From an uncultured Desulfobacter sp. (GTDB taxonomy: Bacteria; Desulfobacterota; Desulfobacteria; Desulfobacterales; Desulfobacteraceae): a stretch of DNA of 64,000 bases. The notes beneath the pieces were generated by a model that saw only the letters and a program-made list of their open reading frames with translations, had not been told where the DNA came from and made no database searches. Every line of letters starts with the position of its first letter. The stretch's first letter is position 1. A program made the position numbers and the translations under genes. Of the stretch, positions 29,650-61,570 are shown piece after piece. The DNA lies in assembly GCA_963665095.1 (NCBI GenBank), contig OY762069.1:6784001-6848000 (forward strand), read 5' to 3'.

Positions 29650-29741
29650 TGGCGGAGAAGGAGAGATTCGAACTCTCGGTGGAAGTTTCCCCCCACAACC
29701 GCTTAGCAGGCGGTCCATTTCAGCCACTCATGCACTTCTCC
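29650..29741 (-). tRNA. tRNA-Ser(GCT)
   Basis: GGAGAAG/CTTCTCC acceptor stem, ACCGC-CT-GCT-AA-GCGGT anticodon arm, long variable arm, GTTCGAATC, encoded CCA. Confidence 0.97.
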
Positions 29742-29752
29742 GCAAGTATTTT

Positions 29753-29840
29753 TGGCGGAGGAGGTAGGATTCGAACCCACGAGGCTGTTACACCTAACGG
29801 TTTTCAAGACCGCCGCCTTCAACCGCTCGGCCACTCCTCC
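29753..29840 (-). tRNA. tRNA-Ser(TGA)
   Basis: GGAGGAG/CTCCTCC acceptor stem, GCGGT-CT-TGA-AA-ACCGT anticodon arm, long variable arm, encoded CCA. Confidence 0.97.
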
Positions 29841-57788: not shown

Positions 57789-58409
57789 TTGATTATACAG
57801 AAACTGGAAGTCGGTCCCATTATGGCCAATTGTTTTATTCTGGGATGTGAGGATACCAAAGAAGCCGCAGTTATTGATCCGGGAGATGATGCAGACCGCA
57901 TATTGATGGTCCTTGCCAAAGCTGAGCTTAAGTTGAAGTACCTGATTAATACCCATGGCCATTTTGATCATGTGGGGGCAAATAAGAGAATGAAGGATGC
58001 CACTGGTGCCCAGATTGCCATTCATCCGGATGATGAGTCCATGATAGTGGACCTGTCCCGCCATGCTGCCATGTTCGGGCTTGCTGCTGAAAATTCTCCG
58101 CCTGCAGATATTTTTCTGAATGACGGCGATAAGATATCCTTTGGCAATATAACCCTGGAAGTTATCCACACCCCGGGTCACTCCCCAGGTGGCGTCAGCC
58201 TCTACACATCCGGCCATTTGTTTGCCGGCGACACCCTTTTTATGGGGTCCATCGGCCGCACGGACTTGCCGGGTGGAAATTACGACACGCTTATTTCGAG
58301 CATTAAGAGCAGGCTTCTGACCCTGGATGAAGATACGATGGTATATACAGGACATGGCCCGGAAACCACCATTGGCAATGAAAAACGGATCAACCCCTTC
58401 CTTAGATAA
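57789..58409 (+). CDS. MBL-fold metallo-hydrolase (glyoxalase II/YcbL-like)
   Basis: THGHFDH, TPGHSPG, GDTLF, GRTDL, GHG. Confidence 0.93.
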   Translation: MIIQKLEVGPIMANCFILGCEDTKEAAVIDPGDDADRILMVLAKAELKLKYLINTHGHFDHVGANKRMKDATGAQIAIHPDDESMIVDLSRHAAMFGLAAENSPPADIFLNDGDKISFGNITLEVIHTPGHSPGGVSLYTSGHLFAGDTLFMGSIGRTDLPGGNYDTLISSIKSRLLTLDEDTMVYTGHGPETTIGNEKRINPFLR

Positions 58410-58421
58410 TGCCCTTACATA

Positions 58422-58476
58422 TTTGTACCCTGGATCATAAATATCTGGCTGTGATATTTATGATCCGGGGTGCGAA
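58422..58476 (+). terminator. 24-bp hairpin closing the rib operon
   Basis: tttgtaccctggatcataaatatc-7 nt-gatatttatgatccggggtgcgaa, with 3 G-U pairs on +. Confidence 0.65.
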
Positions 58477-58690
58477 ATTTCCCTTCCTGTCTTTGTGTGT
58501 CGGTGCTCCTTAATCAATTGGTAATCATAATTTCAGGAACCAAACTTGTATTTGGGAACGGGATGAGATACTTTTATTCGATTATAAACCGGCCTGAATT
58601 TTGGGCATCAATCTTTCCCGAAATTTGAAGTCTGTTTTTATTAAATCCATGGAGCACCAAGAGGAATATACAAAATAATTGGATGCACCA

Positions 58691-59407
58691 ATGAAACAGA
58701 TCAATTTAATATTTGCCATACTTTTACTGATGCTTGCCCTGGCTGTGCCTGTAAATGCTTTAGCCGGGCCTAGAGCGGTGCCTGTGGCTCCTTCTTATAA
58801 TTTTGAGGCGGTGCCTGAAGGACAGCATATTTACCATGATTTTGTTATAAAGAACGAAGGTGATGCGCCTTTGAACATCACCAAGGTTCAACCTCCTTGA
58901 GGCTGCGATAGCAAAGCCTATGACAGGCAGATTCCCCCGGGCGGGGAAGGTAAAATCACCATTGGTTTTAAGACCGCTGGATATGGCGGCCGGCAACTTA
59001 GCAAGAAAATTATGGTTTATACCGATGATCCTGGCAATAAAAAAATTTACCTGGTCATAAGTGGGACTGTTAAAGATATCATCAAGGTCGCGCCGCGCAC
59101 TGTCAGTTTAAGCGGTGCCCCGGGCCAGACGCTGAGTGCCGTGGTTAATATCGAGGCCGTTGAAGGCAATGAACTCAATATCCTTGATATCCGTCAAAAG
59201 TTCAATAAGCAGATCAAATCCGAACTTGTCCGGCCTGTTAAAGGTGAAAAAAAATGGCAGGTAAAGATATCTTGCCATTCAGACCAGCCGGCGGATCTCT
59301 ATGATTTTATTACGCTAAAAACCGACAATCCTGATAAACCGTTATTGAAAATCAGGGTGTATGCTATCTATGACCGGGTCACTGGATCGGGTGCATCAGG
59401 GTCTTAA
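58691..59407 (+). CDS. Exported DUF1573-like Ig-fold protein with in-frame TGA (candidate selenoprotein, U-G-C motif), 238 aa
   Basis: Signal peptide; HDFVIKNEGDAPLNITKVQPP-TGA(58898)-GCDSKAYDRQIPPGGEGKI continues in frame into the 59012 ORF. Confidence 0.85.
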
Positions 59408-59453
59408 AGATTTTAAAGGACAACAGCGAAAGCCAAAAAGGAATATAATTATT

Positions 59454-60095
59454 ATGGACGCAGCCCAGATCAAAGCTGTTGTATTTGACTGCGATGGCGT
59501 GATGTTTGATACAGCCCAGGCCAACCGGATATTTTATAATGAAATTCTGGCTGCCTTTGGCAAGCCCTGCCTCAATGACGAGCAGTTCATCAATGTGCAT
59601 ATGATGACGGTTAAGGCGGCTGTGACGTATCTTTTCCCCGAACTGGATGATGTTGTGCCTGTGTATAAGAAGATCAAAAGTATCGGGTATGACACGGTTG
59701 TGCCGTACATGCAGATGGAAGCAGGCCTGACCGAACTTTTAGCCGATCTTAAGGCTGCCGGCATGATCCGCGGTGTGGCCACCAACCGGACCAATACCAT
59801 GGAAAATGTACTTGTTACCCATCATCTTTCAGACGCCTTTGAAATTGTTGTCACGGCATCTGATGTGGTGAACCCGAAACCGGCGCCGGACCAGCTTGAA
59901 AAAATCATGGCTGCGTACGCCCTTCTGCCTCGTCAGATCGTGTTCATAGGGGACTCTGTATATGATCAAAGGGCAGCTGAATCAGCCGGTACCTGGTTTA
60001 TTGCATTTAAGCAGCCCGGGCTTGATGCTCATGCCCATGCTGTCTCCATGAATGAGATTAAAGAACTGTTAAAGATAAGCGAATATAATTCTTGA
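59454..60095 (+). CDS. HAD-family phosphatase (PGP/PpaX-like)
   Basis: VFDCDGVMFDT, ATNRT, KPAP, FIGDS..D; ATG 59454 preferred. Confidence 0.92.
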   Translation: MDAAQIKAVVFDCDGVMFDTAQANRIFYNEILAAFGKPCLNDEQFINVHMMTVKAAVTYLFPELDDVVPVYKKIKSIGYDTVVPYMQMEAGLTELLADLKAAGMIRGVATNRTNTMENVLVTHHLSDAFEIVVTASDVVNPKPAPDQLEKIMAAYALLPRQIVFIGDSVYDQRAAESAGTWFIAFKQPGLDAHAHAVSMNEIKELLKISEYNS

Positions 60096-60216
60096 CAAAT
60101 CTGTCAATCATCATTAAATCTTACGAGATTTTTAAAAAAAATTGAAGTCGGTTGCCGGGTCAAGGCATCTGACACGTTATAATGGCAGTTAACCATAGAT
60201 AAGGAGAATGACGTAT

Positions 60217-61494
60217 ATGTCTAAATTAGTTGCACCCCACGGTGGTAAAGGTCTTGTATGCTGCAAGCTCGAAGGCGCAGAACTGGAAGCTGAACTGAAA
60301 AAAGCCGCAGGTCTGAAAAAAATTGAAATTTCTTCCCAGGTTAAAGGCGATCTGATCATGCTGGGCATTGGTGGTTTCTCTCCGCTGAACGGCTTCATGA
60401 CCAAGGCTGACTGGAAAGGCGTTTGCGAAGACTTCCTGATGGCCGACGGTACTTTCTGGCCGGTTCCCGTTATGCTTGACGCTGCTGCTGATGATGCAGC
60501 AGAGATCAATGTTGGCGACGAAATCACCCTGGAAAGAAATGGTGAGATCTATGCTACCATGAAGATCGAAGAAAAGTTCGAGATGAGCGAAGATGAGAAG
60601 AAATGGGAATGCGAGAAAGTTTACAAAGGTCATGGCGAAGAGTCTGCTGACGATTGCTTCTGGAAAATCGCTATGGAAGATCATCCTGGCGTCCAGATGG
60701 TAATGGCCAGAAAAGAGTTCTGCCTGGCAGGTCCTGTAAAAGTTCTCTCCGAAGGCGAATTCCCCGAAAAATTCAAAGGCGTTTACCTGACTCCTGCTGA
60801 AACCCGCGCTATCATGGATGAAAAAGGCTGGGCAAACGTTGCTTCCATGCAGCTGAGAAACCCCATGCACAGATCCCACGAGCATCTGTGCAAGATCGCC
60901 CTTGACGTATGTGACGGCGTTCTGATTCATTCCCTGATCGGTAATCTCAAACCCGGCGATATCCCTGCAGAAGTACGTATCAAATGCATCGACACCCTGA
61001 TCAAGGGTTACTTTGTACCGGAACACGTTATCAACGGCGGATATCCTCTGGACATGAGATATGCTGGTCCCCGTGAAGGCCTGCTGCATGCTACCTTCCG
61101 TCAGAACTACGGTGTTAACAGAATGATCATCGGCCGTGACCATGCCGGCGTAGGTGACTTCTACACCCTGTTCGAAGCACAGGAAATTTTCGACACCATT
61201 CCCATGCCGGAAGAAGAAGGCAAACGCCTGCTGTGCGAGCCTCTGAAAATTGACTGGACCTTCTACTGCTACAAATGTGACGGCATGGCTTCCATGAGAA
61301 CCTGCCCCCATGGCAAAGATGACCGCGTAATCCTCTCCGGTACCAAACTGCGTCACGCCCTGTCCAACGGTGAGCCCGTTGTTGATCACTTTGGCCGTGA
61401 AGAAGTTCTGGTTATCCTTAGAGAGTACTATGCCAGCCTGACCGAAAAGGTTGAGGTTAAACTGCAGAGCCATGCAGAAGGCACCAAGATGTAA
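60217..61494 (+). CDS. sat: Sulfate adenylyltransferase (dissimilatory type)
   Basis: [55 protein letters not shown]. Confidence 0.98.
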
Positions 61495-61533: not shown

Positions 61534-61570
61534 AAAGCGGCGCTTTCCCTGGTGGGGAAGCGCCGCTTTT
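61534..61570 (+). terminator. Terminator after sat
   Basis: aaagcggcgctttccc/ggggaagcgccgctttt. Confidence 0.85.

Follow-up and report, generated by a model that had tools for sequence, protein, structure and literature searches.

A gene of the catalogued OS_HP2/DUF1573 family in an uncultured Desulfobacter sp., with an in-frame TGA codon that is very likely decoded as selenocysteine

In 2007 Zhang & Gladyshev described six new selenoprotein families from the symbionts of Olavius algarvensis (PMC1976440), OS_HP2 among them, and the table of that paper, in the portion available to us, gives 0 Cys homologues for OS_HP2. It returns in the accessible part of the GOS paper (PMC2398784) as the entry 'OS_HP2, pfam07610, UxC', and DUF1573 with a UGC motif is tabulated in reviews of 2022 and 2026 (PMC9312934 and PMC13188914, excerpts of both). 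Judging by the listings of a full-text literature search for DUF1573, no functional study of the domain was found. The family raises the question of what role a Sec/Cys pair plays in the periplasm of sulfate reducers when it sits on an Ig-like domain that is no enzyme.

We analysed a stretch of 64,000 nucleotides from an uncultured Desulfobacter sp. (contig OY762069.1, positions 6,784,001 to 6,848,000), hereafter the window, to which positions refer unless stated otherwise. By sequence comparison, the segment 58691-59407 is one gene of the catalogued OS_HP2/DUF1573 family, in which selenocysteine is very likely inserted at the TGA of codon 70 (Table 1). Read through the TGA, the product scores 134.8 bits (E 1e-39) against a cut-off of 100 with the NCBIfam model NF041425, 'OS_HP2 family (seleno)protein', residues 34-128 being aligned to profile positions 4-98 of 98. 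The Pfam model PF07610 (DUF1573) aligns with residues 35-127, codon 70 included (E 4.4e-20; 72 bits, with a cut-off of 26.1), and PF22544 (HYDIN_VesB_CFA65-like_Ig) also matches this first domain (E 8.2e-11). Membership of OS_HP2 follows from the score above the NF041425 cut-off, the pfam07610 domain and a U-x-C motif whose predicted Sec is aligned to the Cys of homologues. Since 2007 OS_HP2 has stood in selenoprotein catalogues as a predicted family, and it has an NCBIfam model of its own; the locus has little discovery value. It does have some value for annotation: translation table 11 splits the gene, and gene tracks that are blind to Sec miss a conserved exported protein.

Table 1. Coordinates of the gene, its parts, its neighbours and the other genes with an in-frame TGA
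Feature	Position (in the window unless stated)	Strand	Description
Whole OS_HP2/DUF1573 selenoprotein gene (predicted)	58691..59407	+	238 codons and TAA stop 59405-59407, read through one TGA
Predicted Sec-type signal peptide	58691..58765	+	residues 1-25: MKQ, hydrophobic core, VNA-LA / ALA-GP
Domain 1, DUF1573 / HYDIN-VesB-like Ig-like beta-sandwich	58793..59074	+	residues 35-128, bears U70-G71-C72
TGA codon 70, predicted selenocysteine	58898..58900	+	first Cys of the family C-x-C motif
TGC, Cys72, partner of the predicted Sec70	58904..58906	+	invariant in 49 aligned sequences
Hairpin 1, SECIS candidate A	58916..58928	+	GCCU-AUGAC-AGGC, 4 bp here, loop start +20 nt from UGA
Hairpin 2, SECIS candidate B	58932..58948	+	UUCCCC-CGGGC-GGGGAA, 6 bp, loop start +38 nt from UGA
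Domain 2, second Ig-like beta-sandwich	59081..59371	+	residues 131-227, strands 131-134 ... 218-227; T211 invariant
HAD-IA family hydrolase	59454..60095	+	46 nt downstream of OS_HP2; HAD_2 E 3.1e-28
Sulfate adenylyltransferase (sat)	60208..61494	+	downstream of HAD; ATP-sulfurylase and PUA_2
Terminator-like hairpin after sat	61534..61569	+	16-bp stem, 10 G-C pairs, T-rich tail
fdhA-type genes with a TGA	own genome, G000:C1: 5449832-5452912, 6288026-6291043, 4644945..., 4650579..., 2245932...		

The segment is a single frame whose sole interruption is the TGA. An earlier note on this DNA had taken the two ORFs called here, 58679-58900 (73 aa, TTG start) and 59012-59407 (131 aa), for one frame broken by a single TGA and followed by 37 open codons, and translation agrees: the ORFs share a frame, only the TGA and the 37 open codons (58901-59011) lie between them, and the read-through product from the ATG at 58691 has 238 aa. 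This ATG was picked as the start, being the aligned place where orthologues begin MK.... The protein reads ...FVIKNEGDAPLNITKVQPP-U-G-C-DSKAYDRQIPPGGEGKI...VYTDDP..., or, at the motif itself, ...NITKVQPP-U-G-C-DSKAYDRQIPPGGEGK..., and its hydrophobic N-terminus is MKQINLIFAILLLMLALAVPVNALA. The note had also set the TGA at the first Cys of the CGC motif in a DUF1573-like Ig fold, which the PF07610 match spanning the TGA bears out, and had called the protein exported with a signal peptide, in line with the hydrophobic N-terminus, with a lone helix at residues 2-17 in the AlphaFold2 model and with equivalent N-termini in the orthologues. As read from the sequence, the predicted signal peptide carries no lipobox Cys, and cleavage would fall near residue 25.

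The AlphaFold2 model, built on an alignment of 49 sequences, has a pLDDT of 94.4 and consists of the N-terminal helix and two beta-sandwiches, at residues 29-128 and 131-227. Domain 1 is made of strands 35-42, 46-55, 61-67, 72-77, 86-94, 101-111 and 118-128, with pLDDT mostly above 94, and U70-G71 lies in the turn between strands 61-67 and 72-77. Domain 2 has neither a Pfam match nor a C-x-C motif. Across the 49 sequences N55, G57, U70, C72, G87 and T211 are invariant and H49 is nearly so. C194 was considered as a resolving Cys and rejected, its conservation being confined to part of the genus. A Foldseek search with the model returned tandem ASH/HYDIN-type Ig-like domains (9ijj_C at E 3.7e-11, chains of 7sqc, CEP192 SPD-2) and no enzyme fold; with Pfam and AlphaFold2 likewise giving Ig-like beta-sandwiches only, the claim that the protein has no enzyme domain held as well. 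A sequence search of the PDB with the family profile gave nothing below E 0.1.

Two kinds of structural relative deserve comparison. The ASH/HYDIN/CFAP65-type (MSP/PapD-like) domains of the ciliary central apparatus are the best structural matches and agree with the Pfam HYDIN match, but they belong to eukaryotic proteins with a structural role that have no Sec/Cys centre; the likeness is one of fold only. The protein 2qsv of Porphyromonas gingivalis W83 shares the tandem beta-sandwich (Foldseek E 1.5e-9), and its second domain is a weak profile match to DUF1573 (E 0.13), but it differs in having no C-x-C at the aligned place in the alignment obtained, with low TM-scores of 0.35-0.38 and an identity of 16%; as its function is unknown, it adds nothing on mechanism. 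Compared with the thiol/selenol oxidoreductases, the protein has no known redox fold and no CxxC or UxxC, its motif being UxC, and a redox role is therefore a matter of analogy and not of class membership.

There are two modest handles on function: a cytochrome-fused paralogue, and the neighbourhood of the gene, with HAD at the level of the order and sat at that of the family. The HAD gene, whose product reaches the cut-off of no NCBIfam equivalog, is the next gene downstream in 30/30 near loci, and the same holds for 17/20 loci that belong to other families or genera within the order. Outside the order this is true of a single locus among 20, and a family-wide partnership of OS_HP2 with HAD was rejected on that count. 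The sat gene follows HAD in 29/30 near loci (in the remaining one the contig ends first) and in 2/20 wider loci, both of the same family. The OS_HP2-HAD link is thus a synteny across one order, and sat is limited to one family. Among OS_HP2, HAD and sat there is no site comparable in strength to the terminator-like hairpin found after sat, only weak ones of 5-9 bp inside genes, and the sequence makes co-transcription of the three possible. Upstream of OS_HP2 lie nusB and an MBL-fold gene. The latter (57789-58409, +) encodes a glyoxalase-II-like or sulfur-dioxygenase-like hydrolase that falls below every NCBIfam cut-off, and it is not a conserved partner, since it stands upstream only in some loci of the same genus (5/30 near loci). 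In the other families of the order the conserved neighbours are the housekeeping genes priA and polA and a CoA-binding protein, which offer no functional clue.

The paralogue lies in the same genome (G000:C1:2737467-2738615, +; L018:961-2109) and joins a tetrahaem Cytochrome_C554 domain to a DUF1573 domain, with the motif S-C-A-C, and a second Ig-like domain. Like the OS_HP2 protein it is exported and has, after its C-x-C-bearing DUF1573 domain, another Ig-like domain; it differs in carrying Cys and not Sec in this genome, in its N-terminal tetrahaem domain, and in its sequence, which is 28% identical over residues 38-171 and scores 48.3 bits with NF041425, below the cut-off. In another genome (G042:C48:593-1737, -; L140) the two halves of the module are separate genes: one for a cytochrome and, 63 nt downstream of it, one for a DUF1573 protein with the motif S-stop-S-C, in which a TGA takes the place of the first Cys. 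By analogy, the fused and split pair may be a weak Rosetta-stone hint of periplasmic electron transfer. Cytochrome fusion as a general feature of the family was tried and rejected: the longer frames among the phylum homologues extend at other ends, and none of 20 of their read-through ORFs holds a CxxCH.

Where a family has both Sec and Cys forms, the Sec position is usually a redox-active one. For this reason, and because the paralogous C-x-C module is fused or adjacent to a tetrahaem cytochrome c, we lean slightly, by analogy, towards a redox function of the U-G-C turn over metal binding. The cytochrome link, however, belongs to a paralogous subfamily at 28% identity. In the likeliest alternative the protein is the same selenoprotein, but the turn would serve mainly as a site for soft metals (Cu(I), Hg, Cd, Zn or similar), perhaps together with His49, rather than as a redox catalyst. 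This would suit a non-enzymatic Ig-like sandwich on which, among the invariant and near-invariant residues, U70, C72 and H49 alone have side chains that could act as ligands, and the published Sec tables, in the portions available, include several families that handle metals (a cation-transporting ATPase, MerT, YHS and CobW-like proteins; PMC9312934, PMC13188914); yet the gene has no metal-handling neighbour here, with nusB and the MBL-fold gene on one side and HAD and sat on the other, and the partner of the paralogue is a cytochrome. We give a chiefly metal-binding turn somewhat less than an even chance.

Decoding of the TGA as selenocysteine, which is common to the redox and the metal-binding view of the turn, can be judged from the genome and from the orthologues. 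The genome of the window holds selA (598.1 bits), selB (347.8 bits), selD (366.8 bits) and tRNA-Sec (74.7 bits, at C1:5485637-5485730), all above their cut-offs. The selD gene (G000:C1:6745510-6746433) itself bears one in-frame TGA, as does each of five FdhA-type (formate-dehydrogenase-type) genes, and a PF07992 search of the same genome for further TGA-bearing genes found none with stops. The window contains two matches to the tRNA-Sec model at 29652-29743 and 29757-29840 (-), of 39.2 and 40.8 bits and below the gathering score of 47, which probably represent ordinary long-variable-arm tRNAs.

Conservation of the TGA was followed with a six-frame search with the read-through protein. A match was found in 59 of 61 related genomes, and the best match holds exactly one in-frame TGA in 57 of these 59, the identities ranging between 68% and about 30%. 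In all of the TGA loci fetched from these genomes (50/50) the TGA occupies one and the same column, with G-C right after it, and the 20 homologous loci that are free of stops have C-x-C there (CGC, CSC or CRC) in 19 cases and C-C-G in one. Twenty further loci from other orders of the phylum behave alike, with U-G-C in 14/14 TGA loci and C-x-C in 6/6 Cys loci. Over order and phylum together, U-G-C occupies one column in 64/64 TGA-bearing loci, and Cys occupies it in 26/26 stop-free loci (C-x-C in 25 of the 26). At E <= 1e-10, NF041425 matches 116 of 301 sampled genomes of the phylum, and 37 of the best 50 of these matches hold one TGA. The in-frame TGA is conserved far beyond chance. The two sides of it are under the same degree of constraint, with a median dN/dS of 0.166 upstream and 0.176 downstream (Nei-Gojobori, NG86; 29 sequences of the same family, 406 pairs, of which 130 with dS < 1.5, with L032 dropped because of its truncated N-terminus). 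Four public assemblies from 4 studies, each of which holds 58600-59500 in one contig, keep the TGA unchanged; two of them (X1 and X6) have 2-3 differences elsewhere in that segment, and the other two (X3 and X7) are near-identical to the window and may be its own source. The observations that the earlier note had named as support (a TGA conserved at one column, Cys there in other homologues, purifying selection on both sides, a Sec machinery in the genome) were thus all made, and the possibility it had raised of a TGA unique to the strain did not survive the orthologues, nor did a sequencing error survive the four assemblies.

One genome (G041:C37:14664-16232, -) carries a Sec copy and a Cys copy in tandem (L057 and L087) upstream of HAD, in another family, and in a further genome (G048) the orthologous position adjacent to HAD holds the Cys form only; together, these two cases point to Sec/Cys exchange inside an orthologue group.

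That Sec and Cys alternate, and do so at a single column, is the hallmark of selenocysteine; together with the full Sec machinery in the genome it speaks against a TGA that is read by other means (near-cognate Trp or Cys). A related proposal, that the TGA serves chiefly as a selenium-dependent attenuator of HAD and sat, can draw on the lack of a strong terminator-like site among the three genes, such that translation of the first could affect those downstream; the HAD link, however, is that of one order and the sat link that of one family, whereas the TGA is found throughout the phylum. We regard decoding by non-Sec means and attenuation, taken together, as very unlikely. Still less probable is a pair of genes, in which a 69-aa exported peptide would end at the TGA and an independent protein of 131 aa would start from the ATG at 59012. 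Both pieces are indeed ORFs, but a single Pfam/NCBIfam domain spans the TGA, the structural model has one beta-sandwich running through it at pLDDT above 94, the 37 intervening codons are open and conserved in all orthologues, and the Cys-form homologues are single uninterrupted genes. A pseudogene, dead through a fresh nonsense mutation or an apparent one through sequencing error, would account for the frame split by table 11 into 73 aa and 131 aa and for the lack of an Rfam SECIS match, but this reading is refuted by conservation of the TGA across orthologues (the same column in 64/64 TGA loci, to about 30% identity), as well as being at odds with a downstream dN/dS as low as that upstream, with the four assemblies that keep the TGA and with a family model that is itself named (seleno)protein, and we leave it next to no chance.

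If the TGA is decoded as selenocysteine, a SECIS element is to be looked for in the RNA that follows it. The alignment of 49 TGA-bearing orthologues, from which L087 was left out, has no gap in the 81 nt around the TGA, and two conserved hairpins lie within 51 nt after the TGA. Hairpin 2 appears in both the MFE and the centroid fold of the window and in the folds of most of the 49 orthologues; in their alignment (A1), 87.4% of the cells are paired and 4/6 pairs change on both sides, a result reached by 0/500 shuffles. Some of these compensatory changes alter amino acids (for instance IAPGGRG in L047). In a more distant group of 14 orthologues its register is shifted by 3 nt, its core is invariant and covariation is lacking. 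There it is hairpin 1 that stands out, with 5-7 bp at the same place, 80.6% of the cells paired and 5/7 pairs changing on both sides, against 31-50% paired in slid controls, in which both helices were scored together. When the folds of 15 TGA loci from other orders were inspected, without a tally, most showed the two hairpins again. In the 60 nt after the codon the mean MFE is -16.5 kcal/mol for 49 TGA genes versus -13.1 for 19 Cys genes, and the mean z relative to shuffles of synonymous codons is -0.97 versus -0.18 (L060 and L087 left out of the MFE comparison). Taken alone, the window gives a weak signal: folding of the 71 nt around the TGA is no more stable than that of dinucleotide shuffles (z -0.21), and modestly more stable than that of synonymous shuffles (z -1.38, with 17/200 as low).

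A scan of 58400-59700 against Rfam at E <= 10 found no SECIS family, only three snoRNA or miRNA matches at chance level. Hairpin 2 overlies the codons of I-P-P-G-G-E. Those for Pro-Pro-Gly-Gly (CCN/GGN) are complementary by nature, and some of its pairs may therefore owe their presence to the peptide motif. The program bSECISearch reportedly looks for an apical loop at 16-37 nt from the UGA with a G early in the loop. Set against this, hairpin 1 fits the spacing and is weak here, with neither a GG loop nor a G at the loop start, and hairpin 2 has a G-rich loop and lies at the far edge of the spacing. At the nucleotide level, the stretch from the TGA to hairpin 2 is unusually conserved, since in the sequencing runs compared contigs of other organisms match the window at >= 90% only there (58895-58956); the loose ends of those contigs show another TGA-GG-TG context.

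From these data one might picture the following course of events. SelB with Sec-tRNA(Sec) would be recruited by one hairpin or both while the ribosome stands at UGA70, and the resulting product of 238 aa would be exported via the Sec pathway, losing its signal peptide near residue 25. The mature protein would fold in the periplasm into its two Ig-like beta-sandwiches, and the U70-G71-C72 turn would form a selenol/thiol centre, engaged either in selenenylsulfide cycling (redox) or in the binding of a soft metal. A more detailed speculation, by analogy, is that the turn is a periplasmic redox centre exchanging electrons with c-type cytochromes, and that the UGA is decoded through an unusual tandem-hairpin SECIS, in which hairpin 1 brings a SelB-binding hairpin at +38 into range. 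As a whole we consider this version rather unlikely.

The genome itself offers a comparison for the hairpins. Its selD and fdhA genes have SECIS elements that consist of one hairpin each, 6-9 bp long, with a GGC or GGUCU loop starting about 20-24 nt after the UGA. Hairpin 2 resembles them in its G-rich apical loop (CGGGC here, GGC in the distant orthologues), but the OS_HP2 gene departs from them in having two shorter hairpins, with loops at +20 (without GG) and +38; as far as the sequence goes, SelB presumably binds one of these or the pair. With the OS_HP2 family as described, finally, the locus shares an HMM score above the cut-off, the pfam07610 domain, the UxC/UGC motif with Sec in first place and hosts of deltaproteobacterial or Desulfobacterales type, and it differs in no family-defining feature. 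Beyond the published OS_HP2 accounts, in the portions of them available, it adds two hairpins after the UGA, many Cys homologues, and a downstream neighbourhood conserved at the level of the order for HAD and of the family for sat.
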